From positions 320,166 to 384,165 of the forward strand of contig JAKLGJ010000004.1 of the NCBI GenBank assembly GCA_022710715.1: a stretch of DNA of 64,000 bases. The letters run 5' to 3'. Origin of the DNA: Candidatus Omnitrophota bacterium (GTDB lineage: Bacteria > Omnitrophota > Gorgyraeia > Gygaellales > Profunditerraquicolaceae). The notes beneath the pieces are model-generated. The model made no database searches. It saw only the letters and a program-made list of their open reading frames with translations, and had not been told where the DNA came from. The position numbers and the translations under genes are program-made. Shown here in pieces: positions 7,232 through 47,943 of the stretch (position 1 is its first letter; every line of letters begins with the position of its first letter).

Positions 7232-7729
7232 ATGTTTGTTTCCGAACTGGTTAAGCCGGATCTGGTAGAGGTGCATTTAAAATCCGTTGCCCGGGATGCA
7301 GTGCTTTCCGAGATACTCGACCGTTTGTATGCCAGGAAGAAGATCAAGAACAAGGAAGAAATACTGGCGAGTATCCTGGCGAGGGAGAAAATCGGCTCAA
7401 CCGGCATCGGTAAAGGAGTGGCGGTTCCTCACGCGCGGCTGGAGAGCTTGGAAGAAATGGTCCTGTTCGTGGGTATCTCTCAAACAGGGATCGATTTCTC
7501 CGCCCTGGACGGGGAGCCGGTGCATATCATCATGCTTCTATTGACTCCTACCAGCGAAATGGGCGCCAGTCTCAAAACGCTGGCGCATATCGCCAGGATG
7601 GTCAATGACAAACTTTTCAAGGAACAACTGCGTCAGGCTTCTACCAATGACGAGCTGTTCACTCTTCTCAAGCAAGGCAGTCTGGATAAGGAGCAGATGC
7701 TTTTGATGCGCGAGGGGGGCAAAAAGTAG
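7232..7729 (+). CDS. ptsN: PTS EIIA(Ntr)-type nitrogen regulatory protein
   Basis: PTS_EIIA_2 fold. Active-site His context 'GKGVAVPHARL' compares with the GIAIPH consensus. 165 aa. Confidence 0.7.
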   Translation: MFVSELVKPDLVEVHLKSVARDAVLSEILDRLYARKKIKNKEEILASILAREKIGSTGIGKGVAVPHARLESLEEMVLFVGISQTGIDFSALDGEPVHIIMLLLTPTSEMGASLKTLAHIARMVNDKLFKEQLRQASTNDELFTLLKQGSLDKEQMLLMREGGKK

Positions 7730-25340: not shown

Positions 25341-25568
25341 GCGCGACTCCGCTTAATCTGTATTTTACTTTACTCTTGAAATGTACTCCCGTCAACAACA
25401 AAAACCCGGTTTGAAACCGTTTTCAGGATACCCCCGCCGGAGTCTTTAATTCGCCCTCTATATAAGGTATACTTATAGCGGTTGGTAACCACACACTCTT
25501 TCTATCCCTTCAATAGAGAGAGCTATTTTTTTAATCACAATCTAAACATTTTCAAAAAGCCGGAGCGT

Positions 25569-28500: not shown

Positions 28501-31500
28501 ATATGCTGACCCTGGAATTAGGGGTGACCGAAGATCCGAGCCGCAGCATTGATCTGACTCGTTTCCCGGATCGAATCGCGGAGAAAACGGTTATTTCAAC
28601 TTCATTCATCGATCAGGATCATCGAAAAACCTGGGCTGATTGCGGATTTATACTCAAGGTTCCGGGTCGCAATATCATTTCCACTTCACCGCAAGACGCC
28701 GGGTCGCTGTTTTGGGAAGGGATAAGCTGGGTGAAGCAGGCTTTGCGCTCGAGGATTTTGATGTCGCCTGAAGATCTTATTTCAGCAAGTGATGCATTCA
28801 CATATAACGAGGTAGTCCTTACCGGCACGCATCCGGATTTTCCGGATTCGCGGGTGGAAATAGTTGGCGTTTTCTTGAAACGGTTGGAAAACGGCGTGCT
28901 CGCGGTTCATGCCAATAATCAGGGAAGCGATCTCTGGAACTTCACCAGCGAGCGTTCGATTGCCAGTCGGCTGATGTACCAGGCCAGAGAGCATGGATGG
29001 CCGATTATCTATATCGATGAACCGATAGAGAAATATGAGGATAATGAGCCCCAATTCTGGGAATCAGTTACCGGAAATGGGACGTTTCACATTGCAGTTC
29101 ATTCGGGAGGCAAGAGGTATCTGGTCACGCGCGAAAAAGACGGAAAAGCCCGTGCATGGGTGTTTGAGCAGGGCGGAGATATTTCCAGGCGAATGAGCGC
29201 GCAGGATTTCGATCTGTGGCATTCCCTGGTATTGCCCTATGTGCAGGCGCATGGTCAGGAAATTCCGTCGGATCCGTTTTTTTCTACAAGAACAGCGGGA
29301 ACGACAGTGAACGAATTCTATGCCGCGGTCATCGGCGATGATGCGGTGAAATGTAAAAAGGAGCTTCTTGACGGCGGTAAGAAGTCGTTTACTACCATAA
29401 ATAACCTTGATCCGGTGGCCGAACAGATCAAGACTATGCCGGCCGGCGGAGTGGTTTATCTGGATGTGGATAATATTATCATCAGACATGACAGCAAGTT
29501 ATATCCCACCGATAAATTCCGCACTGTCCGTTACAACATGCTTAAGCGGGCCAATCCTGCGTTATCGATCGAAGAGGCGGCGAAAACAGTCATTCCGGAA
29601 GTCGCTTATCTGGAAATGATCGCTTTCCGGGCAGGGTTGATCAATGACGTCGAGCGGATCAGCCGGATTGTCGCTCTGGCCAAAGAGCGGAAGTTGCGGG
29701 TGGTAGTGGTAAGCAATCGCTCGCAGGATCTGGCTTCGGGAACCCGGGATATGATCGCGCAACTGGGCGTTTCCGGCATCGATGAATTTCACTTCGTGGG
29801 CAGGGGTAATGACACCAAAGCCGCGAAGATCAAGGAACTTATGGAAGCGGATAAAGTCAGCCATGCGGTTTTCGTGGACGACCTCAAAGGCAACGGCCAG
29901 GCGGTATTCGATCAGATATCGCAGCTGCCCGGGGTAGAGTCGATCAGCGTGTTCCATCTCCAGCAGCAGCGTGAAGAACGTTCTTATCAAGATTATCTGC
30001 GGTCCATAACCGTTATGCTTGCGCTAAAAGATCTGGTTGATCCCGGAGAATTCGAGCTGCTGATGGTCAGCGCCTTGCTGAAGATCAGCGAGGATCCGGC
30101 ATTGCGGGGATTGAACGAGTTGCTCGATCTGATCAGGAAAAACGGCCTGAACGCGCCGCATTTCCTGGGCCAGGGGCTGGTGGAAGAATATTTCAAAGAG
30201 TTGGGCGTGGATCTTGAGTCAGACGCTCTCGATATGGAAAAGATCCGTAAACAGGCGGAGCGGGAGGTCAAAGAAGAGGACGTGGAGGATTTCGCGCGGC
30301 TGCTGGGATTCGATGATGAAGTGATCGTGCAGGGTTTCAGCGATACGGAGCTGGCTCACTGGCACGACAAGGTGCGTCAACTGCGCCGCGCTGCTGCGGC
30401 TGCCGCAGCGAAAGCGGGTAACGCGGTATCCCTTCCCACGGACCTGACTGCGGCGGAAGTAGAGTTCTTCCTGGAGGATGCGGCGCAGCCGCCGGGGTCC
30501 GCCAGAGAGCGTACTCCCCGGAGCGTCCTGGCGCAGCGTTTCAGTAACCTGCTGGCATTCACCCTGTTGATGGCCGCCACGATCTTCTCGGGAGGATTGC
30601 TGCTGCAGCATGATGATCATCAGGATGACTTTATTACGCCGGATGACAGTCTCCCGGCCCTGACCATCAATAAGACCGCGGCTTTTAACAATCTTACCCA
30701 TTCTCCCATGGACTCGCGGTATTATGAGAATCTCAAAAACTACGGCACACCGCCCAAAGTCACCACCGAAGGCCGCAAGATATTTATCGGCGGCGTGGAA
30801 TACAAAGTACGGGCTGTCGCTTTTTCGAACGTACCGGAAGGACAGACGTTCGATGATCTCGTGCTGGATGCGGATCATTTGTCGGATCACGATCTGCAAT
30901 TGATGCAGGCGGCCGGGGTCAACACCATCAGTACCTATTATGCGCCTACCTTCGACTTCCTCGATGAGTGCATGAAATACAATATCCGGGTGATCGTGGG
31001 GATCCCGTATTACGATACGCGTATCCATCCGGGGCCGGATATCAAAACAGGCAGTTATATCGATTACATGGCGTTATACATGAACCATCCCGCGGTGCTC
31101 TGGGTCAAGCTGGGCAATGAATACAATTATCATCCTGAATGGTTCGAGGGCGACGTGGATAACTGGTATCGCGCGATGGATACCGCCGCGCTGACGCTCA
31201 AAGCCATCGATACCAACCACCCTGTTTCCACTGCCCAGGGATATGTCCCTGATATCGGCACTCTCGACAAGTTGAAAAATATCGATGTGATCGGGATCAA
31301 TGGCTATACCTTCGACGATTATTCCGGGATGATCGCCGATTTCAAGGCGAAATCGCCCAAGCCGTTCATATTTACCGAAGCCGGCACCGATTCCTATAAT
31401 ATGATCACCAACTCTCATGATGAAGCGTCTCAAGCCGTAGCCTTGAAACATATCTCGCGCAGCATCGATAATGATCCGGATTGCGCGGGCTGGACGGTAT

Positions 31501-33011: not shown

Positions 33012-33029
33012 TTTCAGATTAAGGGGCGC

Positions 33030-33105
33030 CCGGAACTGGTTACCAACCAAACGACCAGCCGATACCCAATCGTATTTCCGGCGCCCCTTATTTTTTTTTC
33101 ATTCC
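33030..33105 (+). terminator. large-loop rho-independent terminator
   Basis: AAGGGGCGCC ... GGCGCCCCTT inverted repeat followed by a T10 run, directly after the giant ORF stop. Confidence 0.6.
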
Positions 33106-33115
33106 TGCCGATAAG

Positions 33116-33125
33116 CATGGTATAA
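33116..33125 (+). promoter_or_regulatory. putative extended -10 promoter element (TGgTATAAT)
   Basis: 'atggtataat' lies about 50 nt upstream of the 33172 start. Confidence 0.35.
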
Positions 33126-33171
33126 TACAAAAAATTGTGGATTTTCGGTCAACTACCCCGAGTTACGCTTT

Positions 33172-36100
33172 ATGTCCGGAATAAAAATAGATCGGAACAC
33201 ATTACTCATCGCTGCCCTCGGTCCAGCGCTCTGGTTGCTGGACGGGTTGTTGATGTCGGTACTGTTCAAAGAGAATCTTCTCCGGCAATTATTTCTTCCC
33301 AAAGGGCCGGATTTCATCGTCAACCTGCTTTTGTTCTTCCTGCCCGGAGCTCTGGCTGTGGTCTTCACCCGCGACAGCGGCGAAACCCCGCCCTCCCCGC
33401 CCAAACCCGCTTTTGACCTGACAAAAGGCAACGCCATACTTATCGACGGATCCGGCAAGATCATCGAAGCCAACGATAATATTTTGGCTCTGCTCGGCCA
33501 TACCCAGGAGCAGCTCGCCGGTTCGGAGATCACTCAAATCTGCGGCAAAACCGATCCGCAGAAAGTATTCGCGTTTATCGCGGAAGTCCTGGAGCATAAA
33601 GACGGCATACTCGATAATATCGCGGTGTTCGGCAAGAGCAAGGTCATGCGCGCGGATATCCGCGGCAGGCTGATCAAGAATTTCCGGCGGGATATACCCC
33701 AAGCCATTTTGTTGGAACTGGCGCCGCGCCTTCCGGCTGCCGCCGCGCAAGTTCCGGCCGCGCAAGCTCCGGCTGCCCAGGCAGGGTCTGTAACTCCGGC
33801 AGCGCAACCGCAGCCTGCAGTTTCGCCTCAACCGCAACATCCGTCGCTCAAAGACATCATTGCCGCCATTGTCCCTGCGCAGCCGCAGCAGGCGTCGTCA
33901 TCGCAGTCGCAATCGCCGCAGTCGCCGTCTCCGCAGCCGCCGCAACAGCAGGAATCTCCGGCGAAATTTGATCAGGAGCGCAGGAAGATCGAAGACGCGG
34001 TCCGGACACAGGAGCAGAAAAAAGCGCAGGAACAGATCCAGGCTCTGGAGCAGAAGCACGCCCGGGAAATGGTCGAGAGAATGACCCAGGAACGCAAACG
34101 CATGGAAGTGGCTTTCCAGGAACAGGCCCGCAAGCTGCTGGAAGAAGAGCGCAAGCGTCTGGAAGATTCCATCCGCAGGCAGGAACAGAACGCTGCCCAG
34201 GAAAAGATCCGGGCGCTGGAGAGCCGGCAGGCGCAGGAGTTAAGCGTCAGGCTGGCCAATGAGCGCAAACGTCTGGAACTGGCTTTGCGCGAAGAAGAGC
34301 AGCTCACCACCACGCGCATCGAAGATTCCCTGAAGAAAAAATTCGAGCAGCAGCTGCGCGCGCAACTGGATGAAGATCGTAAACATTGGGAAGCCACCAC
34401 GCGGCAACTGGAGAAGACTCTGGAACAGCAGATGGAACGCCAGGTCCGGTTGCGCGTTGAAGATGAACGCAAGCGCCTGGAACAATCCGTGCGCCACGAA
34501 GAGCAGAAAAAAGCCCAGGAACAGGTGCAGGCGGTGACCAAACATTTTTCCGAAGAACTGAACCAGAAGCTTACCGAAGAGCGCAAGCGGCTGGAGCCGA
34601 TCATTCGGGGAGAAGAGCAGAAGAAAGCCGAAGAGAGCCTGCGCACCCTGGAGAACCGGCACGTGCAGTCGCTGGGAGTCAAGATCGCCGAGGAACGCCG
34701 GCGCACCGAAGAAGCCGCGCGCAAGGAAGAGCTCAAGAAGCTGCAGGAAACCGAAGCTTTTCTCGCCAGGCAGCATGAGACGGAGACGCGGCAGCGCCTG
34801 GAAGAAGAACGCCTCCGGGTGGAAGCAGAGATCCGCGGCCAGGAACGCGCGCGGGCGGAAGAGCAGCTCGCATTGCTTAAAACCCGGCATGCCGAAGAAT
34901 TGGCTTTGCGCATCGAAGAAGAAAAGAGCCGGGTTGAAGCCCAGGTGCGCCAGCAGGAGCGCCAGGCCGCGCAGGAGCAAATCTTCGTTCTGAAAAATCA
35001 GCAGGCCCAGGAACTCTGGGTTAAGATCGCCGAGGAGCGCAAGCGTCTGGAAGATACGGTCCGGACCGAAGAACGCAAGCGCGCGCAAGACGTGGTCCGC
35101 CTGGAAGAGCAAAGCAAGGCCCAGGAGCAGATCCGGCTGCTGGAGAATAAATTCGCCGTTGAGCTGGGGCAGAAGATCGCGGAAGCCAGGAAGCAGATCG
35201 AAGAAGCTGTCCGGCAGGAAGAGATCAAGAAAGCCCAGGAGAATCTGCGTCAGATCAACACCGAGCATGCCGAAGAAACCTGGCGTAAATTGAACGAGGA
35301 ACGCGCGCGGGCTGAAGAAGCCACGCGCCGGCAGGAAGAGGAGAAGCATCTGCGTTTGCTGGAGGAGCTGAAAGCTACTTACGCCCGGGATCTTGCCGCT
35401 AAACTGGAGCAGGAACGCAAGCGCATCGAAGAAACCGTCCGCCAGGAAACCGAACACGCCCTGCAGGAGCGCGTGCGTAACCTTGAACAAACCCAGGCCC
35501 GGGAATTCACCGCGCAGATGGCTGAAGAACGCCGGCGCCTGGAACAGCTCATCCGCCAGGAAGAACAAAAGAAGCGGGAAACGCTGGAGGCAATGCTCAA
35601 GAAACAATACGTCGACGAATTGCAGCAGCAACTGGCAGAGGAGCGGCGTAAGGCGCAAGAGTCTCTCCGTCAGCAGGAGGGGCAGACATTTCGCCAGCAG
35701 CTGCAGGAAGTCGACCAGAAATACGCGCAGGATCTTAACGCGAAACTATCCCTGGAACGCCAGAAATTCGCAGATCAGCACGCGTTGCTGGAAGTGCAGA
35801 TCCGCCAGCAGGAGCAGCAGAAACTTCAGCAGCAGATCATCGACCTGGAGAATAAACACGCCGCGTATATGGCCGGCAGGATCGCCGAGGAGCGCAAACA
35901 GGTGGAAGCAGCGGTGCGTCAGGAAGAGCGCAAGAAAACCGAAGAAACGATACAGGCGTTAAAAGCGCTCTACGCCCAGGAGGCGAAAGCCGCCCAGGCG
36001 CAACAGACGCCGCAGCCCGCGCCTGTCGCCGCGCCGGCGATTATTTCCGCCGAGCAGCGCAAGCAGATAGAAGAAACTGTGCGCCAGGAAGAGCGCAAGA

Positions 36101-36957
36101 AAGCCGAAGAAGCAATCCAGGCGCTCAAAGCGCTCTATGCCCAGCAGTCTAAGGAGCTCGCCAAGCTCCCGCAGGCCAAGCCCCTGCCGGCAGCGGCCCC
36201 GGCGGTTCCGCCTGCCGCCCCGCAACCCGTCGGCGCAGCCAGGCCCGCGGCGCAATCCGCGAATGTGCGTATCCCGGGCATGGGCAAGATCGTTACCGGC
36301 CTGTCCCAGGAAATTCTCAACCCCTTATCCGCGGTGTTGAATAACGTCAAGCTGGTCAAGATCAAATTGATGCAGGAAGCCGGTCCCAAGAATACCGAGC
36401 TGAAGAATTCCATCGATCTGATCGAGGATAACGCGCTGCTGTGCAAGAATATCCTTTATTCGCTTTCCGATCCCACGCGCGCCGTGCAGGCCTCATTCAA
36501 GAGCCTCTCGCTTAACGACACTATCGCCAAAGTGGAAACCCTGTTCGGTTATGAGCTGAAGCTGCAGAACATTTCCCTGCAGAAACAACTGCAGGCGAAC
36601 CTGCCGGATGTCAGCGGCGACCCGCTGCTTCTGATGCAGGTTGTCTTCAATATCATCGCCAACGCCAAATGGGCGATCAAGAACAATCCCTATGTCAGCG
36701 CAGGCACCATCCACATCGTCACCCAGGCCACCCAGAACGACGAAGTGGAGGTCATCATTACCGATAACGGCATCGGGATATCCCCGGAGCATATGTCGCA
36801 TCTCTACGAACCGTTCTTTACCACCAAGACCGACGGGCTGGGATTAGGCCTGGCAGTCGCCCGGAACATCATGCAGGAGCACAAAGGCACGATCGAAATA
36901 GTCAGCAAAGACGGCAAAGGCGCCACCGTCACCCTGCGCTTCCCCACAGCGAAATAA
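33172..36957 (+). CDS. PAS - extended coiled-coil repeat - histidine-kinase-like protein (H-box His replaced by Gln)
   Basis: N-terminal 2 TM plus a PAS-like segment ('ILIDGSGKIIEANDNILALLGHTQEQLAGSEI'). About 900 aa of ~38-residue repeats follow ('ERKRLE..VRQEEQKKAQEQI.ALE..HA.EL..KIAE'). C-terminal HisKA-like 'LSQEILNPLSAV' and an intact HATPase_c ('NIIANAKWAI', 'DNGIGI', 'GLGLGLAVAR'). Confidence 0.75.
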   Translation: MSGIKIDRNTLLIAALGPALWLLDGLLMSVLFKENLLRQLFLPKGPDFIVNLLLFFLPGALAVVFTRDSGETPPSPPKPAFDLTKGNAILIDGSGKIIEANDNILALLGHTQEQLAGSEITQICGKTDPQKVFAFIAEVLEHKDGILDNIAVFGKSKVMRADIRGRLIKNFRRDIPQAILLELAPRLPAAAAQVPAAQAPAAQAGSVTPAAQPQPAVSPQPQHPSLKDIIAAIVPAQPQQASSSQSQSPQSPSPQPPQQQESPAKFDQERRKIEDAVRTQEQKKAQEQIQALEQKHAREMVERMTQERKRMEVAFQEQARKLLEEERKRLEDSIRRQEQNAAQEKIRALESRQAQELSVRLANERKRLELALREEEQLTTTRIEDSLKKKFEQQLRAQLDEDRKHWEATTRQLEKTLEQQMERQVRLRVEDERKRLEQSVRHEEQKKAQEQVQAVTKHFSEELNQKLTEERKRLEPIIRGEEQKKAEESLRTLENRHVQSLGVKIAEERRRTEEAARKEELKKLQETEAFLARQHETETRQRLEEERLRVEAEIRGQERARAEEQLALLKTRHAEELALRIEEEKSRVEAQVRQQERQAAQEQIFVLKNQQAQELWVKIAEERKRLEDTVRTEERKRAQDVVRLEEQSKAQEQIRLLENKFAVELGQKIAEARKQIEEAVRQEEIKKAQENLRQINTEHAEETWRKLNEERARAEEATRRQEEEKHLRLLEELKATYARDLAAKLEQERKRIEETVRQETEHALQERVRNLEQTQAREFTAQMAEERRRLEQLIRQEEQKKRETLEAMLKKQYVDELQQQLAEERRKAQESLRQQEGQTFRQQLQEVDQKYAQDLNAKLSLERQKFADQHALLEVQIRQQEQQKLQQQIIDLENKHAAYMAGRIAEERKQVEAAVRQEERKKTEETIQALKALYAQEAKAAQAQQTPQPAPVAAPAIISAEQRKQIEETVRQEERKKAEEAIQALKALYAQQSKELAKLPQAKPLPAAAPAVPPAAPQPVGAARPAAQSANVRIPGMGKIVTGLSQEILNPLSAVLNNVKLVKIKLMQEAGPKNTELKNSIDLIEDNALLCKNILYSLSDPTRAVQASFKSLSLNDTIAKVETLFGYELKLQNISLQKQLQANLPDVSGDPLLLMQVVFNIIANAKWAIKNNPYVSAGTIHIVTQATQNDEVEVIITDNGIGISPEHMSHLYEPFFTTKTDGLGLGLAVARNIMQEHKGTIEIVSKDGKGATVTLRFPTAK
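33970..36145. repeat. degenerate ~114-bp tandem coding repeats (about 20 copies) encoding the coiled-coil units
   Basis: Periodic recurrence of gag/gaa-cgc-aag-cgy-ctg-gaa ... cag-gaa-gag-cag-aag-aaa-gcc-cag-gag-cag. Confidence 0.7.
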
Positions 36958-37795: not shown

Positions 37796-37884
37796 GGAGA
37801 GGTGGCAGAGTGGTCGAATGCAACTCACTGCTAATGAGTTATCTGGGGAAACCTGGATCCTGGGTTCAAATCCCAGCCTCTCCG
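37796..37884 (+). tRNA. tRNA-Ser (anticodon GCT)
   Basis: Acceptor GGAGAGG/CCTCTCC, anticodon stem AACTCA/TGAGTT with loop CT-GCT-AA, long variable arm, T-arm CTGGG-TTCAAAT-CCCAG, discriminator G. Confidence 0.85.
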
Positions 37885-37897: not shown

Positions 37898-37950
37898 TTC
37901 GAACCTTTGCGCTCATCGTCTAAGAGCGCGATGGTTCGAATTTTGCTTTT
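37898..37950 (+). terminator. rho-independent terminator after tRNA-Ser
   Basis: TTCGAACCTTTGCGCTC ... GAGCGCGATGGTTCGAA hairpin followed by TTTTGCTTTT. Confidence 0.55.
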
Positions 37951-38064
37951 AGCCACGCAGCAAGGCTTAAAATCCCGCTCATTTCCTTCAAGAAGCTGGT
38001 AAAAGTCAGCTTCCTTCGTTAAGCAGTCTGCAATGCTCGTCGAGATTTCGAAATGGGAGGATAA

Positions 38065-38391
38065 ATGACAGCAAACAAATTTACTGCCAACGCGTCGGCC
38101 CTTTCGGATTTACTGAATTATCAGACTGATTCGATTGTTAGTCAAGAGATCGTGAAGAAAAGCTCCGGCACGGTAACGTTATTCGCTTTTGACAAAGGAC
38201 AGGGTTTAAGCGAGCATACCGCTCCTTTTGACGCTCTGGTTTATATCGTTGACGGGAAAGTTGAAATTACGATCTCCGGCAAACCCTTGATCGTTAAAAA
38301 AGGCGAAATCATCATTATGCCTGCGAATAAGCCTCATGCCTTGAAAGCGGTGCAGAAATTCAAGATGCTTTTGGTTATGATGAAAAGGTGA
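38065..38391 (+). CDS. cupin domain protein
   Basis: 108 aa. '[27 protein letters not shown]...[14 protein letters not shown]' is a cupin two-motif beta-barrel pattern. Confidence 0.65.
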
Positions 38392-38395
38392 AGAG

Positions 38396-38749
38396 ATGAT
38401 AAAAACAAAAAGAATTTACAACGGTCCCGCAAGAGGCGATGGTTTGAGAATCCTTGTGGACAGGCTCTGGCCGCGAGGCATAAGCAAAGAGGAGGCGAAA
38501 ATCGACCTCTGGCTCAAAGACATTGCCCCCAGCGACGGCCTAAGAAAATGGTTTGCGCATGACCCGGCAAAATGGTCTGTATTTAAAGAAAAGTACTTTT
38601 CTGAGCTCGGCAATAAAAAAGCTCTCATTGGCGAAATTATGAAGAAAGCGAAAGGCGACGTGACACTGTTGTATGCCGCCAAAGACGAACAGCATAATAA
38701 CGCGCAGGCGTTAAAAGAATATATTGAAAACAAGGAGGTGGTATCATGA
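38396..38749 (+). CDS. DUF488 family protein
   Basis: 'IKTKRIY..P...[18 protein letters not shown]...W.K..APS..LR.WF' matches DUF488 (YeaO-like). Confidence 0.65.
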
Positions 38750-39336
38750 AGAGCAGAAAGATAAATAAATTTTTCTTGTTTCTGCTTAGCGCAGCGGCTG
38801 TCTTGTCTATTGGAAGGGGTGAACTGTTTGCGCACTGCGACACTTTGGATGGCCCTGTGATTCAGGATGCACGAACAGCTTTAGAGAAGGGTGATGTTAC
38901 GCCGGCGCTCAAATGGGTCAAAAAAGACGCTGAGCCGCAGATCCGCGCTGTCTTCGATAAGACGATCGCCGAGCGCAAGTCAAATAAAGATGCCGCTGAT
39001 ATGAAATTCTTTGAGACGCTGGTGCGTATTCATCGCGCAGGAGAAGGCGCGTCTTTCACCGGCCTTAAGCCAGGCGGTTCTGTCGAGACTATTGTCGCCG
39101 GAGCGGATAAAGCATTGGAAACCGGCTCCCTTGATGCTTTGACTCAAGAAATGGCAACGCATCTTACAAGTGGCGTTAAGAAACGCTTCGAGCGTGCGTT
39201 TGCATTGAGGAAGCATAAAGACGAAAGCGTTGAGGCCGGACGTGAATATGTGGAGGCTTATGTCGAATACGTGCATTACGTGGAAGGATTGCACGATATG
39301 ATAGGGGGCAAGGGTAGCCATAATCACGAAGAATAG
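38746..39336 (+). CDS. hypothetical secreted protein (DUF6448-like)
   Basis: Signal peptide, then '[15 protein letters not shown]' and a helical remainder. Confidence 0.4.
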
Positions 39337-39376
39337 CGCCTGCTTATTCGTAAAAAATAAAATTTCGGGAGATTCT

Positions 39377-39757
39377 ATGAGCGGAGGGAAAATACTCAAG
39401 AGAAGAATTCAGGAGTATTTTTTCAAAGAAGAACGTATTATATTCCATGTTTTTCGCGGTATTTTTCGAAGCTTGATCCTTATCCTCAGTTTTTTGATGA
39501 TAGGGATATTCCTTTTCATGAAAACAGAAAAACTTGGTTTCCATGATTCTTTATACGAGACCGCGATGATCATGACGGGCATGGGGCCAGCTATCGAATT
39601 GCAAACAAATAGCGGAAAAATCTTTGCGTCTATTTTTGCTATGGTATCGGTAGGGGTGGTTATTTCTTCAATCACTTTTGTCTTCGGCCCTATTTATAGA
39701 CGATGGCATAAGAAAATGCATATTGAAATCCAGCAAAAGACAGGCGGTAAAGAATAA
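39377..39757 (+). CDS. two-TM ion-channel-like protein (pore-loop 'TGMGP')
   Basis: TM1 - pore helix 'YETAMIMTGMGP' - TM2 architecture. No K-selective TVGYG filter. Confidence 0.4.
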   Translation: MSGGKILKRRIQEYFFKEERIIFHVFRGIFRSLILILSFLMIGIFLFMKTEKLGFHDSLYETAMIMTGMGPAIELQTNSGKIFASIFAMVSVGVVISSITFVFGPIYRRWHKKMHIEIQQKTGGKE

Positions 39758-39766
39758 TCGAGGTTT

Positions 39767-40441
39767 ATGCAAATGCGCATACTATTAGTAGAGGATGAAA
39801 TAAGAATGGCCAGTTTTATTGTGCGCGGCCTGAGAGAAGAGGATTACGTGGTTGACGTGGCCAATGACGGAGAAAAGGCTTTATTCCAGGCCGAAATTAA
39901 TCCGTATGATCTTATAATCCTTGATATTATGCTGCCGGTTAAAGACGGCATTACTGTCTGTCGGGAACTCCGGAGCAAGAAGATAAACGTTCCTATCTTG
40001 ATGCTTACATCCAAAGACAGGGTGCGAGATAAGGTTTTAGGCTTGAATTCAGGCGCCGATGATTATCTGGCTAAACCATTTGCTTTTGAGGAGCTGATAG
40101 CCAGAATTAGCGCCTTATTACGGCGGGATAAAACAGATAAAACCGGTATTATTAAAGTCGCAGACTTAGAGCTGGATCAGCTCAGGCATGCAGTTACGCG
40201 GGCCGGGAATGAAATCCAGCTAACCAGCAAAGAGTTTGCCCTTTTGGAATACCTTATGCTTAATGCCACTCACGTCGTTACCAGGACAATGATTTCAGAA
40301 CACGTATGGCATGAAGATTTCGACAGTTTGACGAACGTCATTGATGTTTATATGAATTTCTTGCGCAATAAGATCGATAAAGGGCACAAAAAACGGCTTA
40401 TCCATACCATCCACGGCAAAGGGTATGTTTTAAAGGAATAA
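39767..40441 (+). CDS. OmpR-family response regulator (CusR/CopR-like)
   Basis: Receiver ('LLVEDE', 'LIILDIMLP') plus winged-helix trans_reg_C. Close paralog of 52483..53151. Confidence 0.85.
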
Positions 40442-40443
40442 CT

Positions 40444-41472
40444 ATGCTCGCCCAAACAATCAAATCAAAGGTTTGCATACTATACGCCTCTCTATTAGGC
40501 GTCGTGTTGTCTCTCTATGTCGGTCTGCTGCTTTTTATGCCCGCGGATTTATTGCAGAGGAATAAGCTGTTTTATATATTGATCCCTATCCCCCTGACGT
40601 TATTATTCGGTTATTTTATCGGGCATGTGATTATAACAAGAATTCTAAAGCCGATTAAAAAGATGACCGACACAGTAAAAAATATTACTCATGAAGATTT
40701 GAGTCTAAGAGTTCAGGCAGAAAACGTGGATGAGGAGTTGAGACGTTTGATCGAAGCTTTTAACGATATGGTTTCGCGGCTGGGGGAGTCATTCGAGTAT
40801 ATTACAGACTCAAGTTCGTATATCGCCCATGAGCTTAAAACCCCGATAGCCATCATCAGGGGGGAGTCGGAATTCGCATTAAAAAAAGAACGGGAGAAGG
40901 AAGAATACCAGAGAGTCATCAGCGTGAGTTTGGAAGAAACCAAGAGAATGCTTAAAATTATCGAGGATTTATTGTTTTTGACCAAAATGAATTACCAACC
41001 CGATGTTTTGAAATTCGAGCAGATTGATCTGACGCAGTTTATCCGTATAATTTACGAACAGGCAAAGATGCTGGCATCCAAAAAGAACATAACGGTCAAC
41101 ATAAATATCCCCGAAGAACCCGGTATGGTTAATGCGGATGATCTGCACCTGCGGCGCTTATTCTTTAACTTAATAGATAATGCAATAAAATTTACCCCCG
41201 CAAGCGGCAGTATAACGATAAATTTACGATATGAAGATCAAAAGGGAGCAGTTTCTATTATTGATTCGGGAATCGGGATTGAGGAAGAGAACATGCCGAA
41301 GCTTTTTGATAAGTTTTTCCGCATCGACGGAACGATTAAAGACACTTCTCCCAGCAGTGGATTAGGTTTAAGCATCGCCCAATCGATAGCCCAGTTGCAT
41401 AAGGGCAATATTTCGGTAACGAGCCGCGTTGGGCAAGGAACAAACTTTACCGTATCCCTCCCCGTTTTATAA
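40444..41472 (+). CDS. sensor histidine kinase (CusS-like)
   Basis: Two TM helices, a HAMP-like region, H-box 'AHELKTPIAII', N-box 'NLIDNAIKFT', 'DSGIGI' and 'GLGLSIA'. Confidence 0.85.
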   Translation: MLAQTIKSKVCILYASLLGVVLSLYVGLLLFMPADLLQRNKLFYILIPIPLTLLFGYFIGHVIITRILKPIKKMTDTVKNITHEDLSLRVQAENVDEELRRLIEAFNDMVSRLGESFEYITDSSSYIAHELKTPIAIIRGESEFALKKEREKEEYQRVISVSLEETKRMLKIIEDLLFLTKMNYQPDVLKFEQIDLTQFIRIIYEQAKMLASKKNITVNINIPEEPGMVNADDLHLRRLFFNLIDNAIKFTPASGSITINLRYEDQKGAVSIIDSGIGIEEENMPKLFDKFFRIDGTIKDTSPSSGLGLSIAQSIAQLHKGNISVTSRVGQGTNFTVSLPVL

Positions 41473-41662
41473 TCAACACATCTCCGCTCAGATTCTTTCC
41501 AGCTATCCAATCATTAAAAATTTTAATTCCTTTTTAACACTTCTTTAATCGCGAGTATGTTATATTGTCTGCCGATGAGGGAAAAAAATTACGGGTGGCT
41601 GCGGAGATCTGTTAAGCAGTGGAAGTTCACTCTGCAGCCGCCCGCAGAATTAAGGAGCGACA

Positions 41663-42391
41663 ATGACAAGAATACTTATTATTGAAGACGAAGAGAAGGT
41701 GAGAAGAATGTATAGCACGATGTTTAAGAACGAAGGGTTTGACGTCATTGAAGCGCCCGATGCGATTCAGGCGTCCTGTATACTCAACAAAGAGTACATA
41801 GATATGATCCTGCTTGATATAAAAATGCCGCAAGTTTATGGCAGCGTGTTTTACGATATTATGAAAATTTCTCACAAAAAGGTTAAAGTCATTGTGGCGA
41901 GCGTTTATTCCATCGAAGAGCAGAAAAAAATGATTCAGGGCGCCGATGATTATTATGATAAAGCGCATGGCCTTGATTTATTGCTGGAAAAAGTCAAGAA
42001 GGTGGAGCGGGGCATAAAACAACAGACGAGCATACTGGTTATTGATGATGAGCCCCGGATCAGGAAGATTTACCGCCATTATTTGCAAGAAAACGGATAT
42101 CGCATCATTGAGGCTCATGATGGCAACGACGGTTTAGATATATTAAGGAAGAGCAATGAAATCGCTTTGGTAATTCTTGATCTTGCCATGCCTCAAAAAA
42201 GCGGGTTCGAGATTCACGAACAGATGAAAAAAGAATTCCCGGGCATAAAGATATTGATCGCCAGCGTTTTTAACCAAAATGACCAGAAATTCCTGCTTCC
42301 CAACGCGGATGATTATTACGATAAATCAGAAGATGCGTCCAGGATGATCCAGAAGATCGAAAAGCTGATACATACAGATTGTCCCGCATGA
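41663..42391 (+). CDS. tandem double-receiver (REC-REC) response regulator without output domain
   Basis: Two receiver domains: 'ILIIEDEE...ILLDIKMP' and 'ILVIDDEP...VILDLAMP'. Confidence 0.75.
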   Translation: MTRILIIEDEEKVRRMYSTMFKNEGFDVIEAPDAIQASCILNKEYIDMILLDIKMPQVYGSVFYDIMKISHKKVKVIVASVYSIEEQKKMIQGADDYYDKAHGLDLLLEKVKKVERGIKQQTSILVIDDEPRIRKIYRHYLQENGYRIIEAHDGNDGLDILRKSNEIALVILDLAMPQKSGFEIHEQMKKEFPGIKILIASVFNQNDQKFLLPNADDYYDKSEDASRMIQKIEKLIHTDCPA

Positions 42392-42442
42392 CGAACAATT
42401 GCCCATGGAGGCAAAACGCCAGGGGGACAAAGGAGGTCAATT

Positions 42443-42637
42443 ATGTGCCCTTATTTCAATTATTCAAAATGCCAGAGTCTGTGTCTCTGCTATCCCGGGA
42501 GCCTGTTCTGTCCGAGTATCCAAAGACGGAAAGATTTTTGTTATAACAAATTCTGGGATTGCACGTATTTTAAGATAGAGACATCAGCAACCATTGAACC
42601 GGCTCAAGGCGAAGATTGTTTGCCTGTATTCGAATAA
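42443..42637 (+). CDS. small Cys-rich protein, MCP[YF]F family (copy A)
   Basis: 64 aa 'MCPYF...CQSLCLCYPGSLFCP...RKDFCYNKFWDCTYF'. AAAGGAGG RBS. Paralog of 43248..43439. Confidence 0.5.
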   Translation: MCPYFNYSKCQSLCLCYPGSLFCPSIQRRKDFCYNKFWDCTYFKIETSATIEPAQGEDCLPVFE

Positions 42638-42697
42638 TCCCGAGCGGTCTAATACATCTTTTTGCAGCCATATAATTATTTAAAGGAGTGATTTCCT

Positions 42698-43234
42698 GTG
42701 CAGTTATATATACCTCAAAACATTTTTGTTCAAATAACGATTCCTCTCTTGATCTTTCTTGCCCGGGCAGCGGATGTAAGCATGGCGGCAATGAGGATTA
42801 TTTTTGTTACTCGCGGCATAAGGGCGCTGGCCGCCATGATAGGTTTTTTTGAAATGTTGATTTGGCTTATAGGCATCACTCAAATAATGCAGAATTTAAA
42901 CAACCCTGTTAATTATTTAGCCTTTGCGGCCGGGTTCAGTATGGGAACTTTCGTCGGCATCACCATAGAGAGAAAAATTGCCATTGGCAATCTGGCGATC
43001 CAGCTCATTACGGGCAAGGATACATCCGGATTATTGACATATTTCCGCGCTAACGGATACGGCGCAACTGCTATTGATGCGCAGGGGACTTCCGGCCCGG
43101 TCAAGATTATTTATATCATCGTCAGGCGCAAGTTGGTGGACAAGGCGCTGGATATAATAACAAAATTTGATCCGGATGCTTTCTATATTATGGGAGACGT
43201 TCAGGTGGCAGCTCGTCTTGGCCCGGCAATCTGA
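42698..43234 (+). CDS. DUF2179 domain membrane protein (UPF0316/YitT C-terminal-like)
   Basis: Three or four TM helices followed by a PII-fold-like DUF2179 segment 'GATAIDAQGTSG..KIIYIIVRRKLVDKALDIITKFDPDAFYIMGDV'. Confidence 0.5.
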   Translation: MQLYIPQNIFVQITIPLLIFLARAADVSMAAMRIIFVTRGIRALAAMIGFFEMLIWLIGITQIMQNLNNPVNYLAFAAGFSMGTFVGITIERKIAIGNLAIQLITGKDTSGLLTYFRANGYGATAIDAQGTSGPVKIIYIIVRRKLVDKALDIITKFDPDAFYIMGDVQVAARLGPAI

Positions 43235-43247
43235 GAGGGAATGAACA

Positions 43248-43439
43248 ATGTGCCCTTTTTTTATTACAATACGACCAATCGGCCATTGCGGCTGTTATGG
43301 AGACGGTTCATTTCATCCGAACGCCAAACGTAAAAAGAAGTACTGCGCCGGGAAATTCAGGGACTGCTTATTCTATCAATGGGAAATGAAGCCGATTATT
43401 ATCCAATCGGCGCCGGGGTTGAAAAGTAATGAGATATGA
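43248..43439 (+). CDS. small Cys-rich protein, MCP[YF]F family (copy B)
   Basis: 63 aa 'MCPFF...HCGCYGDGSFHP...RKKKYCAGKFRDCLFY'. GAGGG RBS. Confidence 0.5.
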   Translation: MCPFFITIRPIGHCGCYGDGSFHPNAKRKKKYCAGKFRDCLFYQWEMKPIIIQSAPGLKSNEI

Positions 43440-44107
43440 ACATTTTAGTCTGGTTATCGCGCAATTATGGGATTGATATGAAAAACATTCCAATAGCGGA
43501 TATTGAGAGAGAGCTTGAGAAATTTACCTGTGATTTGCTGAGAATATGCCGTTTAACGCAGGAGGCGATCAACAAAACATCCTGTGTCCTTCTGTGTTCT
43601 GACGTCTTCAAGATGCAGGAGATTATAGATCACAGCAAAAGAATAGGGGCTCTGTGTGTTGCTTTCGAGGAATATCTTGACGATATCTTGACATGGTATC
43701 GGCCCGAGGGCAGCGTTTTGAAACTCATCTCTTCAAGCATAAACGTTATTATTGAATTAAAGCAAATTGCGGACTTGACTGTGGGTATTGCGGAAAGCTT
43801 ATTAAATTTTAATGCAGATATCCCTGAGAGGTATAAGATCAATATCGCTCAATGCGCTAAAAATTATAAAAATATTGTCTGGGATTCCACCATCTCCTTT
43901 TTAAGACAGGACGCGGAGTTAGCGAAGAAGACTATCGTAGCAAGCCTGGAGCTGAAAAAGATATGCAGCCGCATGCAGGAAGGCGTCATAGAAGCGAATA
44001 AAACAGTTGAATCGGCGAAAAGAGACGAATCTATTGTATTGTTTATTATCCAGAGCGTAGGAGATATTTCCGATCATGCAGTCGCTATCGCCCGATCCGT
44101 TATCTGA
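43436..44107 (+). CDS. PhoU-domain protein
   Basis: Two repeated helical PhoU-like halves with Asp/Glu-rich motifs. Start could instead be the internal ATG at 43478. Confidence 0.45.
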   Translation: MNILVWLSRNYGIDMKNIPIADIERELEKFTCDLLRICRLTQEAINKTSCVLLCSDVFKMQEIIDHSKRIGALCVAFEEYLDDILTWYRPEGSVLKLISSSINVIIELKQIADLTVGIAESLLNFNADIPERYKINIAQCAKNYKNIVWDSTISFLRQDAELAKKTIVASLELKKICSRMQEGVIEANKTVESAKRDESIVLFIIQSVGDISDHAVAIARSVI

Positions 44108-44136
44108 ATATAAACCGAAGAAATCAAGGAGCAGAA

Positions 44137-44655
44137 ATGAAAGATAAAAAAATTTATATCACGCGATCGGATTTCTACCGTCTCCGTGAAACGATCAAAG
44201 CTATGAAGTCCAGCCGGGAGATTGACAGGAGGTCTCTTGATGAACTGGAACACAGCTTTAACTCGCGGAATGAATTGAGATTGCTTCAAGAAGTAAGGAG
44301 GATAAACAGCTCAAAAAACGACGCGGAATGGGCGCCGATTATAGAGCTTGAAGCCGAATTGGACAGGGCAATCATCGTTGATGCCGATAAAATCCCTTCC
44401 GGTGTTATTACGATGAACTCGAAGGTCTGTCTTAAGGATATGGACACGGGGAAGGACGAATTCTATCAACTGGTATATCCCGAAGACGCGGATATTGAGC
44501 AAAACAAAATCTCCGTTTTAGCTCCTATCGGCACGGCGATACTGGGATATAAGGTGGGAGATGTAATCGAATGGAAGGTCCCGGCAGGCTTACGGAGGCT
44601 TAAAATTAAGAAAATATTGTATCAACCTGAAACAGCCAGAGATTATTATCTCTAA
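44137..44655 (+). CDS. GreA/GreB-family regulator (Rnk-like)
   Basis: C-terminal FKBP-like Gre domain 'ISVLAPIGTAILGYKVGDVIEWKVPAG' and an N-terminal coiled-coil. Confidence 0.65.
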   Translation: MKDKKIYITRSDFYRLRETIKAMKSSREIDRRSLDELEHSFNSRNELRLLQEVRRINSSKNDAEWAPIIELEAELDRAIIVDADKIPSGVITMNSKVCLKDMDTGKDEFYQLVYPEDADIEQNKISVLAPIGTAILGYKVGDVIEWKVPAGLRRLKIKKILYQPETARDYYL

Positions 44656-44668
44656 CGAGAGGTCAAGG

Positions 44669-44962
44669 ATGTTCAAACTGATAATGGCTATACTTCCGAA
44701 AGGGAAAATTAAGGCAGTAATGCCGGTTCTTAAAGACGCCGGTATTTTTGGCGCTACCATGTTTCCCGGAAAAGGGATGTGTACGGCAGAGGGCCGACGC
44801 GCGCTCGGCTTGCGTATTAACTCATCGAGAGAAATCCTGATGCTGCTCACCCTGGATCGCAATAAAGATAAGCTCATCACATTGCTGGAACACCACGGCA
44901 CATTAAAAGATCCGGGCCAGGGTATTGTTTTTGTGATGGATATCAGTCAAGTTATCGGATAA
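44669..44962 (+). CDS. P-II family protein (short, divergent)
   Basis: 'LIMAILPKGKIKAVMPVLKDAGIFGATMFPGKGMCTAEG' and C-terminal 'GQGIVFVMDISQVIG' parallel the GlnB T-loop and C-terminal regions. Confidence 0.5.
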   Translation: MFKLIMAILPKGKIKAVMPVLKDAGIFGATMFPGKGMCTAEGRRALGLRINSSREILMLLTLDRNKDKLITLLEHHGTLKDPGQGIVFVMDISQVIG

Positions 44963-44977
44963 ACGTAAGGAGGAGCC

Positions 44978-45439
44978 ATGGCAATAAACGTGTTTGTGAG
45001 TTTTAACCAGACTGATCTGAAGCAATGCGAAGCCTTCAATGTCCTTAAAGATCAATCAAAGCATGCATTTGAGGCTTGCGATCATAGTTTAAAAGAAATA
45101 TCAACTGACGGGATCGAGCAATTGATACAGTGCCGGCTGAATGAGGGCCGTTCAAAAGCATTACGGGAAGAGATTATCAAGAAATTTGAGCAGTGTGCCA
45201 AATTAGTCGTTTTAATCGGAAACGAGACTTTTAAGAATGAATGGGTGGAGTGGGAGGTAAATAATTTTTATAAAATGAAAAACGCGCTTTTGCCGGGGAA
45301 AGCGTGGATGAGTATTCGCGGCATGTTCCTTGAGGGTTGCGAAAAAGCAACAGAGCCGAAGGCCCTGGAATGCAGATCGACAAATGGCCTGGTATGGGAC
45401 CCCGAGGCTTTAGAGAAATGGATAGAAGCAGGATCCTGA
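44978..45439 (+). CDS. TIR-like domain protein (DUF1863 / ThsB-like)
   Basis: 'AINVFVSFNQTD' (compare VFISFxxxD) and 'CAKLVVLIGNETFKNEWVEWEV' (compare CDGVIVLLSKNTWKSxWVxWEI) match the MTH538/ThsB TIR-like pattern. 153 aa. Confidence 0.5.
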   Translation: MAINVFVSFNQTDLKQCEAFNVLKDQSKHAFEACDHSLKEISTDGIEQLIQCRLNEGRSKALREEIIKKFEQCAKLVVLIGNETFKNEWVEWEVNNFYKMKNALLPGKAWMSIRGMFLEGCEKATEPKALECRSTNGLVWDPEALEKWIEAGS

Positions 45440-45493
45440 GACGCTTTCCCCTGGACAAAATTTTTTGCAGGCAAGTAGACCCACCGTAAGCCA

Positions 45494-45528
45494 AAAGGCG
45501 GCTACTTTTTAAGTAGCCGCCTTTTCCG
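45494..45528. terminator. strong bidirectional rho-independent terminator
   Basis: AAAAGGCGGCTACTTtttAAGTAGCCGCCTTTT perfect hairpin with flanking A/T runs. Confidence 0.8.
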
Positions 45529-45686
45529 TTTCACATGAAATACCCTTGCGACTCATCCGCCCAGGTGTTATAATTATCTCATATTAAGGAGTTGGAGGAT
45601 GAGCAGGTCAGAATGGATTCGATAACCTGGAGGTGGCTTTTTGTCTCCGGGTTTTTTGTTTGACAATCACATTTAATAGGAGACGC

Positions 45687-46088
45687 ATGTTAAGATTTGA
45701 ATATGACCCGGATAAGATTTTCACTAGAATTATAAGCCTTGCATGTGAGATGGCAATCGATTGCATTCCTGATTACGACGATGACGATTTCGAATGTTTC
45801 TTCCCTCTTGCATCTAAATGTCTATCGAAGGACATGGTGAGGAAAACACTGAAAGAATTGAAGAAAAAGAATGAAGATTCCCATCTCTGGGTATTGAACG
45901 ATTATCATTATAGTCTGCTATATGACTTGTTGAGGGCGTTTTGCGGTGTCCAGAATGATATAGCTAAAGAATCTAATGAGCCTATCTTGAAAATCGACGG
46001 ATCAAAAATATATGAGATCGATTTTGATGAAATAGTCGAGCATTACTTCTATGATCTGGATTTCCTTTTGCCTAAAAAATATTCTTAA
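45687..46088 (+). CDS. hypothetical protein
   Basis: 133 aa, acidic ('DYDDDDFECFF'). TAGGAGA RBS. Confidence 0.35.
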   Translation: MLRFEYDPDKIFTRIISLACEMAIDCIPDYDDDDFECFFPLASKCLSKDMVRKTLKELKKKNEDSHLWVLNDYHYSLLYDLLRAFCGVQNDIAKESNEPILKIDGSKIYEIDFDEIVEHYFYDLDFLLPKKYS

Positions 46089-46090
46089 AT

Positions 46091-46273
46091 ATGACTGAAG
46101 AGCATAAAGAACAAATGGGTTTCGCTGAAGGGACCTTCGGAGTGATCATAGGATTGAAAGCGCATCCTGATGAGCTTAAGATGGAACTGTTCGATAGGAA
46201 AAAACACATTCCCGGCGCGCCCGACAATTCTTTATATGAAAAAGGTTCGGAAATATATCCCGGTCCAGTGTAA
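46091..46273 (+). CDS. small hypothetical protein
   Basis: 60-aa ORF immediately downstream of the preceding gene. Confidence 0.25.
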   Translation: MTEEHKEQMGFAEGTFGVIIGLKAHPDELKMELFDRKKHIPGAPDNSLYEKGSEIYPGPV

Positions 46274-46335
46274 TATGGCGGGGATCTGCCGCAAGGATCC
46301 TGCGATCCGCGTTGTTGTATTAAGGAGGATGCGAT

Positions 46336-46998
46336 ATGAGTTTCGCCGGAGATTGGTTGAAGAAAGAAAACGAGGCGTATGTCAGCTCGATTGCCGGGCT
46401 TCTGGCGGCGCTGGTTTTCACTGCGGATAAAAAGGCATATATCTGTCAGCAGCCGTTCGATTTCAACGTTTCGCTGGTGCTGTTTGTTTTCGTCGCGCTC
46501 CTGCGGTTGAAAGTCCATGTTTGTGAAACGCGGCTGGAGGGGTTTTCCCGGAGGCTGACTGTTGAGAATCTGGGAAAACTTGGGATGGCTCGGCTTACTG
46601 TCCGGGGGGATATATATCTATTTGCTCTCACGTTATTAAGCCTGGCAGTGATGCATGTTTATTTATTCCTGCCGGCGATGATGTTTTTTGTGATTACGGA
46701 TATCATCAGCTGTGCTGTCTCCTTGAAATATCTGGAGAAAATCGGCACGGATTGGGCAGAAGGCGTGTTCGATCCGTATCGATTATTCAGAGGTTGGATC
46801 GCTTTAGGTGTTATCAATGTGATTGGAATTATTCTGCTGGTGATAATGTCTTTATTTTTTGTCGCGGACATCAGGGTCGCTTTGGTCGAGTACTTTGCCT
46901 TTTGGCTCACGGGACTGGACATATTCGCGGACTTGATGATTGGCAGAGATTTTTATTTCAATTATTATTACCATGCCGAAGCAGAGCCCAAGCATTAA
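46336..46998 (+). CDS. hypothetical polytopic membrane protein
   Basis: 220 aa with about 5 hydrophobic helices. AGGAGG RBS. Confidence 0.45.
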   Translation: MSFAGDWLKKENEAYVSSIAGLLAALVFTADKKAYICQQPFDFNVSLVLFVFVALLRLKVHVCETRLEGFSRRLTVENLGKLGMARLTVRGDIYLFALTLLSLAVMHVYLFLPAMMFFVITDIISCAVSLKYLEKIGTDWAEGVFDPYRLFRGWIALGVINVIGIILLVIMSLFFVADIRVALVEYFAFWLTGLDIFADLMIGRDFYFNYYYHAEAEPKH

Positions 46999-47881
46999 AA
47001 TAGTCGATCTGGTAGAAGTGTGTCGGCAGGACCGGCATAAGTTCGAGCGTCTGTTTAAACAAGCGCAGAAGATTTATCATGCATCTTTCCGTTCTGAAGA
47101 GAAGGAGAGCACTGCGTGCATCCGCAGGTTCATCTGGGACGCGGCACGGGATTCCGGGGATGGCAGCGGCTATCGTTTCTGCTATCTGATTCCTCTTCTG
47201 GGCAAGCGTGTTGGCGGGATGTTTATGTTCGAAATGATCCCTCTGCCGGGTAAGAGCCTTATGGCTTTTTTAGGGTATATCGCTGTTGACCGGTCTCTTC
47301 GCGGAATGGGGATTGCCAAAAGGCTCATCCAGGAGTTTCGGCGGTTTTTTTTAGCGCAAGCGAAGCAATACAAATTGAAACCTTTGGGTGGTTTCGGCGA
47401 GGTGGAAAAACCGGATCTGTCCGTAGCTGACGATTTGAGGAATAAAATTCGTCCGGGATTCCATCATAATGTCTGCAATTTCGGGGTGATGACGGTATTG
47501 ACAGCGGGAAATCGTTTTAAGATCCTGCCGTATTTTCAGCCGGGTATTTCCCGGAATAGGGGCGCGATCGAACCGCCGGTGCCGTTTTTGCCCTGTATCA
47601 TGAGGGTTTTCGGGAAAACATTCCGAAAATTGCCGGTGGGGGCGGGGAAGGTGGTTGATCACGCGGGTCAATTGAAACTCCCGATAAAAAGCTTACCTGT
47701 CATGAATAGCGCTGTTGCTTTGCAAATGATCCACGGAGTGTATAATTCTTACCGGGAAGGCGCGGAATACAGCAAGAACCAGATAGATAAACTTGAAGAC
47801 AATATTCGGCGTAATCTGGAGGGGTATCGTAAAGTATATATTGTGCCTATCCCGGATACAGCTTACATTCCTTTGAAATAG
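46973..47881 (+). CDS. GNAT family N-acetyltransferase (extended C-terminus)
   Basis: 'FLGYIAVDRSLRGMGIAKRLIQEF' is GNAT motif A (acetyl-CoA binding R/QxxGxG/A). Start is uncertain. Confidence 0.5.
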   Translation: MPKQSPSIKIVDLVEVCRQDRHKFERLFKQAQKIYHASFRSEEKESTACIRRFIWDAARDSGDGSGYRFCYLIPLLGKRVGGMFMFEMIPLPGKSLMAFLGYIAVDRSLRGMGIAKRLIQEFRRFFLAQAKQYKLKPLGGFGEVEKPDLSVADDLRNKIRPGFHHNVCNFGVMTVLTAGNRFKILPYFQPGISRNRGAIEPPVPFLPCIMRVFGKTFRKLPVGAGKVVDHAGQLKLPIKSLPVMNSAVALQMIHGVYNSYREGAEYSKNQIDKLEDNIRRNLEGYRKVYIVPIPDTAYIPLK

Positions 47882-47943
47882 ACAGTGATGTGTTTTAAAT
47901 GGATGCTCCCCGGTAGGGCCCGGGAAGCATCCCTTGATTCTTT

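Follow-up and report, generated by a model that had tools for sequence, protein, structure and literature searches.

TIR domains are found in many proteins without a known partner, and many of them act as scaffolds. In TIR enzymes, the BB-loop region controls assembly and access to the active site. ThsB proteins, the TIR proteins of Thoeris anti-phage systems, generally require a trigger and an effector. In Thoeris systems (types I to XI), the effector gene adjoins the TIR gene or shares its operon and encodes for example ThsA (SIR2-SLOG), a Macro-TM protein, a caspase-like protein or a DUF2270 protein, and the systems have a patchy distribution in defence islands. The replacement E85Q in ThsB abolishes Thoeris defence. 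According to a preprint (10.64898/2025.12.03.692087), ThsB pairs with about 30 effectors, whose modular exchange is documented. The systematic survey of TIR signalling in this preprint deliberately leaves out stand-alone TIR proteins. Other TIR effectors, the PycTIR and PucTIR proteins of the Pycsar and Pucsar systems, are CNBD-TIR fusions. MTH538, the founding DUF1863 member, is a stand-alone TIR-like protein.

The gene described here lies in a 64-kb stretch of DNA of an Omnitrophota bacterium, analysed as a whole and called the window below. It offers a clean case for the role of stand-alone TIRs, with active-site residues intact, purifying selection, a fixed position across a lineage and no linked effector. 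If the protein is active, either TIR enzymes work alone or in trans, or an immune signalling enzyme has been recruited into ordinary regulation; if it is inactive, it is merely another annotated "TIR domain-containing protein", the label that it already carries at NCBI. With a probability of about 0.55, we favour the reading that this is a ThsB-type TIR using Glu93 on NAD+, devoid of a local effector and retained in an Rnk operon.

Family, fold and active site of the TIR protein

The ORF starts with ATG and its product contains the motifs NVFVSFNQTD and CAKLVVLIGNETFKNEWVEWEV, from which an earlier note, made from the sequence, had recognised a 153-aa protein with a DUF1863/ThsB-like pattern. 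Profile searches bear out this assignment. PF08937 (ThsB_TIR/DUF1863) covers residues 6-105 with an E-value of 1.8e-11 and a score of 44.8 bits for a gathering cutoff of 21.2; the profile of TIR_2 (PF13676; Tcp-type) remains below threshold (15.9 bits for a cutoff of 28), and the PADLOC ThsB models give weak matches (5e-6 to 9e-6). All the 108 homologs, which are 150-157 aa long, carry PF08937, and the source annotation of some of them reads "MTH538 TIR-like domain (DUF1863)". The number of homologs, together with a dN/dS of about 0.11 (see below), indicates a genuine gene and not an ORF arising by chance.

A single-sequence phmmer search of the PDB with this protein yields a marginal match only (8WCF, E=0.54), so that a family profile is needed to search PDB sequences. 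The profile of a family alignment of 50 sequences (A1) retrieves the B. cereus TIR 8FZ9 (1.3e-5), EcThsB 8WCF (2e-4) and ThsB of B. cereus MSX-D12 (9B7D/6LHY, 0.029). The fold is predicted with high confidence: the AF2 model has a pLDDT of 88.2 and a pTM of 0.83, and its best PDB matches in Foldseek are 8FZ9 (1e-6), 9B7D (ThsB) and 8WCF (EcThsB). Further matches include SPARTA TIR-APAZ, plant TIRs, SARM1 and MyD88, nearly all the top 50 being TIR proteins. Its profile matches, fold and active site thus place the protein in the ThsB_TIR family.

In the profile alignment, the family motif W-V-x-W-E-I falls on WVRYEI of B. cereus ThsB (6LHY/9B7D), and Glu93 is aligned with the catalytic Glu85. 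This putative catalytic residue is invariant in 38 genomic homologs and conserved in at least 90% of the A1 sequences, one member (P0017) having Lys. The expectation of a conserved catalytic glutamate therefore holds, but its placement in the BB-loop region does not: in the model, strand C is followed by a helix (residues 88-104) that carries Glu93, like the catalytic Glu of other TIR enzymes, and the BB-loop position is filled by a beta-hairpin insertion (residues ~33-56). The C-terminal extension of about 40 residues ends in a conserved WDPEALxxW.

Forty-nine core positions, including F6, S8, D13, W89, V90, W92 and E93, are common to the two clades of the subfamily, the Omnitrophota clade, which contains the window protein, and its sister clade. 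The positions that are strong in the sister clade and relaxed in the Omnitrophota clade cluster at residues 27-62 (the hairpin, at the BB-loop position) and 105-112. This pattern fits a protein in which catalysis was kept while the trigger or the contacts changed, and regulated activation could have been lost along with the relaxed residues 27-62. The protein is predicted to be an NAD+-cleaving or NAD+-cyclising enzyme in which Glu93 would carry out the cleavage or cyclisation; we infer both this activity and its product.

Genomic context of the TIR gene

Upstream of the TIR gene, on the same strand, lie the P-II-like, Rnk/GreA-like and PhoU-like genes recognised from the beginning, all three upheld by Pfam or NCBIfam matches (Table 1); Rnk passes the NCBIfam equivalog NF004396 with 123.5 bits for a cutoff of 109. 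Only 13 bp separate Rnk from the P-II-like gene and 15 bp the latter from the TIR gene. A terminator-like hairpin lies 54 nt past the TIR stop codon (RNAfold, -25.5 kcal/mol for the 56-nt segment 45485-45540). Given these short gaps, the hairpin and the promoter-like site that follows it, the TIR gene closes a separate transcription unit, and transcription in the window would proceed through Rnk, the P-II-like gene and the TIR gene and stop at the hairpin.

Table 1. Position of the TIR gene and of the features surrounding it in the window
Feature	Position	Strand	Basis
tRNA-Ser(GCT)	37796-37884		tRNA scan
AT-rich block containing the TIR operon, GC 0.44	37900..47900	.	composition; starts just past tRNA-Ser(GCT)
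OmpR-type response regulator, histidine kinase, double-REC protein, DUF5698/DUF2179 membrane protein, 63-aa ORF, PhoU-like gene	39767..44107	+	Pfam, synteny
PhoU-like gene	43436..44107	+	Pfam
Rnk (GreA/GreB-like regulator of nucleoside diphosphate kinase)	44137..44655	+	Pfam GreA_GreB 4e-26; NCBIfam NF004396
P-II-like gene, 97 aa	44669..44962	+	Pfam P-II E=4.5e-7
Shine-Dalgarno sequence of the TIR gene, AAGGAGG	44967..44973	+	read from sequence
ThsB-type TIR gene, 153 aa	44978..45439	+	Pfam, AF2, Foldseek, homologs, dN/dS
Codon of Glu93, putative catalytic Glu (W89-V-E-W92-E93)	45254..45256	+	alignment to ThsB E85, conservation
Intrinsic terminator-like hairpin, 15-bp perfect stem and T-run	45493..45525	+	sequence, RNAfold
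Separate downstream unit: promoter-like site, leader hairpin, acidic 133-aa, 60-aa, 220-aa membrane and 313-aa GNAT-like ORFs	45546..47881	+	sequence

The conserved association, which the earlier note overlooked, is this upstream one and links a two-component system, Rnk and the TIR gene. Every Velamenicoccus-like Omnitrophota genome examined that offers enough sequence displays the order OmpR-type regulator, kinase, double-REC protein, (DUF5698/DUF2179 protein, 63-aa ORF and PhoU), Rnk, a variable slot and TIR. The upstream part of this order is kept at 53-91% identity, for example in L003, L009, L011, L014 and L016. Rnk is found 5' of the TIR gene in all nine distinct relatives with enough upstream sequence and directly adjoins it in L003 and L018, which diverge most. 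In the other relatives, the slot between Rnk and TIR holds MgtE, the small genes C8 and C9, a DUF2934 gene or a hydrolase gene; a P-II-like gene occupies it in the window genome only. Since unrelated genes fill this slot across genomes, it is a hotspot of gene insertion. The P-II-like gene was considered as a conserved partner and discarded: it is not homologous to C9 in the slot of the relatives and has no tblastn match in them.

In Ca. Velamenicoccus archaeovorus LiM, whose genome is complete (NZ_CP019384; L014:7187-7704), the Rnk ortholog is split into two frames at ~7444-7465 and the TIR gene is intact, which argues against a strict dependence of TIR on Rnk. A frameshift, a pseudogene or an error in sequencing could account for the split. 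A 142-aa paralog of Rnk lies just 5' of it.

As the synteny is observed within one lineage, it may result from shared ancestry instead of functional coupling. The upstream two-component system would control the TIR gene. A constant place as the final gene of a regulatory operon could also be expected from a non-enzymatic adaptor or regulator, for instance of Rnk, of the P-II-like protein or of the two-component pathway; the scaffold function of many TIR domains and the divergence of the hairpin at the BB-loop position in the Omnitrophota clade go in the same direction. We regard such an adaptor as distinctly unlikely, because the strict conservation of the catalytic Glu within W-V-x-W-E and of F6, S8 and D13 is unexpected for a pure scaffold, and because the genes between Rnk and TIR differ among genomes and Rnk is frameshifted where TIR is intact.

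Rnk is an RNA-polymerase-binding factor, P-II proteins have a nucleotide-binding fold, and the Velamenicoccus-like Omnitrophota are ultra-small, host-dependent or predatory bacteria. It is conceivable, though unlikely, that the ThsB-type TIR has been domesticated in them: it would produce or use up a nucleotide derived from NAD+ in an endogenous circuit with Rnk, under the two-component system, and no longer serve abortive-infection immunity, the adjacent P-II-like protein being a possible receptor.

The genes found downstream exist as first described. Their products are a 133-aa acidic protein with a pI of 4.6, one of 220 aa in which 4-5 segments are hydrophobic, and a basic one of 313 aa (46940-47881) whose match to GNAT is weak. 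The earlier note had proposed one of them as the effector of a variant defence module. Only proximity and a shared strand connect them to the TIR gene, to which it may be added that membrane proteins are common as Thoeris effectors according to the preprint cited above. A new module of this kind is extremely improbable: a strong terminator and a new promoter-like site intervene, and the three genes have no tblastn match in 52 loci (about 40 distinct places encoding TIR homologs), so that the co-occurrence suggested earlier did not materialise. Furthermore, the GNAT-like protein finds no homolog but itself among 5.8 billion clusters and is an ORFan, and none of the three genes has a PADLOC match. 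At least four unrelated arrangements are seen 3' of the TIR gene among ten Omnitrophota genomes.

The leader of this separate unit (45546-45690, before the ATG at 45687) has a layout of its own, with a promoter-like TTGCGA-17-TGTTATAAT, a Shine-Dalgarno sequence and an 8-codon mini-ORF (45600-45626), then a terminator-like hairpin (45624-45653). Judged by its sequence, it resembles an attenuator with a leader peptide. When 45440-45690 was scanned with Rfam for a riboswitch, none was found, two tRNAs being the only matches in the whole window.

The AT-rich block in which the earlier note had placed the TIR gene is confirmed. Its GC content is 0.44 for positions 38000-47900 versus 0.55 elsewhere, and its genes have a GC3 of 0.40-0.56 versus 0.63-0.73 for the flanking genes, with sharp boundaries at the tRNA-Ser gene and at about 47.9 kb. 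In all relatives with at least 66% TIR identity, the entire 6-20 kb of the locus is at 39-45% GC; L003/L020, which is more distant, has 53%. At least 12 contigs from several samples, one of them 1.62 Mb long, carry independent assemblies of the locus, which shows that the arrangement is not a chimera. The ~10-kb block, Rnk-TIR operon included, was probably gained laterally by this 55%-GC genome from a low-GC, Velamenicoccus-like Omnitrophota relative and would have arrived next to tRNA-Ser; we infer this direction of transfer. A search for att-like direct repeats flanking the block gave nothing convincing, and no integrase was detected in Pfam scans of the block genes or among the 25 most frequent window-wide families. 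Nor did a tRNA scan of the relatives' loci, intended to locate a common insertion site, reveal any tRNA within reach. In the comparison of flanks, TadA is 70-80% identical across the whole phylum.

Outside the block, the stretch 25482-36957 has a strong AT skew (0.44). It comprises an ORF of 2509 aa (25482-33011) and an adjoining ORF of 1261 aa (33172-36957), the latter with a repetitive Glu/Lys/Arg/Gln coiled-coil-like sequence and a histidine-kinase-like end.

Distribution, selection and partners

The TIR subfamily is small: among 1.84 billion representative proteins, a profile search retrieves only 27 at E<=1e-30 and 316 at E<=1e-3, and a scan of one genome per species identifies 42 loci; none was found in the viral contigs searched. 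A neighbour-joining tree divides the subfamily into two groups. The Omnitrophota clade, with 56-100% identity, is monophyletic and long-branched and includes Ca. Velamenicoccus archaeovorus LiM. The sister clade (31-52% identity) has a patchy distribution over Verrucomicrobiota, Planctomycetota, Acidobacteriota, Chloroflexota, Myxococcota and others.

In the Omnitrophota clade, the median dN/dS of the TIR gene is 0.11 (dS ~0.75); Rnk has 0.10, PhoU 0.15 and the two-component genes 0.05-0.07. The TIR frame is intact in all genomes of the clade (at least ten). The gene is therefore maintained under purifying selection and is not a remnant. The loss of the partner and the relaxation of positions conserved in the sister clade would be in keeping with the functionless, decaying residue of a former defence system, but such a low dN/dS at this dS and the intact frames render it very improbable, as do the strong Shine-Dalgarno sequence, the position in an operon and the 49 conserved core positions.

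The partner search spanned the 64 kb of the window genome and up to 20 kb per relative. Among the 59 proteins of the window, PADLOC detects no ThsA, SIR2, Macro or other effector, its matches being restricted to generic REC, HATPase and deaminase domains. The matches to SduA, PDC-M60 and PDC-M43B in the block belong to this category (generic REC/HATPase domains) and were rejected as defence genes. When the partners from the sister clade (SLOG, cyclase and TM proteins) were used as tblastn queries against the window, the best E-value exceeded 0.02, over short stretches. The earlier remark that no ThsA-type partner (SIR2, Macro or SLOG) is evident is thus corroborated for the 64 kb, and none of the sister-clade partners occurs within 10 kb of the TIR gene in the Omnitrophota relatives. 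A separate observation concerns a 504-aa protein at 5592-7103, which matches the PADLOC candidate model PDC-M51A (E=2e-48); it lies about 38 kb from the TIR gene and is unlinked to it.

The situation is different in the sister clade. Clustering of the neighbours within 6 kb and annotation of the clusters with Pfam reveal three recurring sets of partners. As these types are interleaved on the TIR tree, the TIR protein behaves as a partner-swapping module, much like Thoeris ThsB with its roughly 30 effectors.

The first set (11 loci) associates the gene with TIR_2 and LD_cluster2 (SLOG) domains, split or fused, often accompanied by MazG_C, Nmad2 and a UDG-like gene (L035:7473-12559; L007, L008, L021, L026, L032-L034, L038, L040 and L041). 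Compared with PADLOC, these partners give nothing significant, only a marginal PDC-S66 match at 2e-4. The cluster of L007 adjoins serine recombinase and ParB genes.

In the second set (7 loci), a 385-aa class III cyclase-like protein starts about 12 bp past the TIR stop codon. Its FTD, GDG and N..R motifs are intact, and about 200 aa at its C-terminus form a conserved domain. These loci come from seven species of different phyla (L005:6001-7638; L022, L023, L027, L029, L030 and L042). The pair formed by the TIR and the cyclase-like protein may be an undescribed two-gene signalling system.

The third set (8 loci, among them L025:3628-4284, L036:911-1666, L022, L024, L028, L031 and L039) includes a protein of ~180-250 aa that lacks a Pfam match and has a single membrane helix at its N-terminus, often together with extra TIR paralogs. 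This membrane protein is a candidate effector.

The same TIR is hence exchanged between three types of partners, none of them matched by a PADLOC model (v2.0); term searches in the text of the 2025 survey did not find them either.

The TIR of the window would descend from this small and rare subfamily, the other members of which would be modules, with exchangeable partners, of Thoeris-like conflict systems based on nucleotide signalling. The Velamenicoccus-like Omnitrophota would have lost the linked effector and retained the TIR as the last gene of the Rnk operon, 3' of the two-component system. Its output would be either an ADP-ribose-derived signal for an unlinked receptor or the consumption of NAD+ itself.

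With an effector encoded elsewhere in the genome, the protein would be the ThsB component of a Thoeris-like anti-phage system that functions in trans. All the active-site residues are kept under purifying selection, the sister clade always stands beside plausible effectors, and some known defence islands contain several ThsB genes and effectors. This possibility is nonetheless rather unlikely, considering that no effector homolog is present in the 64-kb window or within 10 kb in the Omnitrophota relatives, that the gene is in stable synteny with regulatory genes instead of showing the patchy, island-like spread of the sister clade, that no relative was found in viral contigs and that the putative regulatory surface of the hairpin has diverged.

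Comparison with known systems

The closest described proteins are the type I Thoeris ThsB (B. cereus MSX-D12, 6LHY and 9B7D), EcThsB (8WCF) and the B. cereus TIR 8FZ9, which have PF08937 and the TIR fold in common with the window protein. ThsB and the latter are both small single-domain proteins that hold the catalytic Glu in a W-V-x-[YW]-E-I motif. Their identity is only about 18-20%, however, and the hairpin insertion and C-terminal extension described above distinguish the window protein from ThsB. The genetic setting differs too: the TIR gene is chromosomally syntenic in one lineage and not island-borne, and no ThsA or other effector adjoins it. Since this defining adjacent effector was looked for and is absent, the locus is not a Thoeris system by its architecture. 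The patchy distribution in defence islands is lacking as well, the Omnitrophota clade being monophyletic with a synteny of regulatory genes.

The likeness to known systems is greater for the sister clade. For example, its first set, in which the TIR proteins have 44-52% identity to that of the window and stand beside TIR_2 and LD_cluster2 (SLOG), resembles the "type III Thoeris" (multi-TIR and SLOG; van den Berg et al. 2024, cited by the preprint 10.64898/2025.12.03.692087). It also recalls the nucleotide-centric conflict systems with SLOG, MazG_C and Nmad2 domains. All the partners of this set are absent from the window and from the loci of the Omnitrophota clade.

The seven sister-clade TIR genes that directly precede a class III cyclase-like gene recall Pycsar and Pucsar. 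Their pairing is not a Pycsar or Pucsar system, because the TIR effectors of these systems are CNBD-TIR fusions and the sister-clade TIRs lack a CNBD. The cyclase-like partner has an extra C-terminal domain and matches no PADLOC model. As for the window, its TIR is a single domain of 153 aa without CNBD, and no cyclase is encoded there.

MTH538 may be likened to the window protein, which is also a small, single-domain TIR-like protein without an obvious partner. The locus is not a new defence system; it belongs to a known family that is found here in an unusual context, conserved within a lineage.
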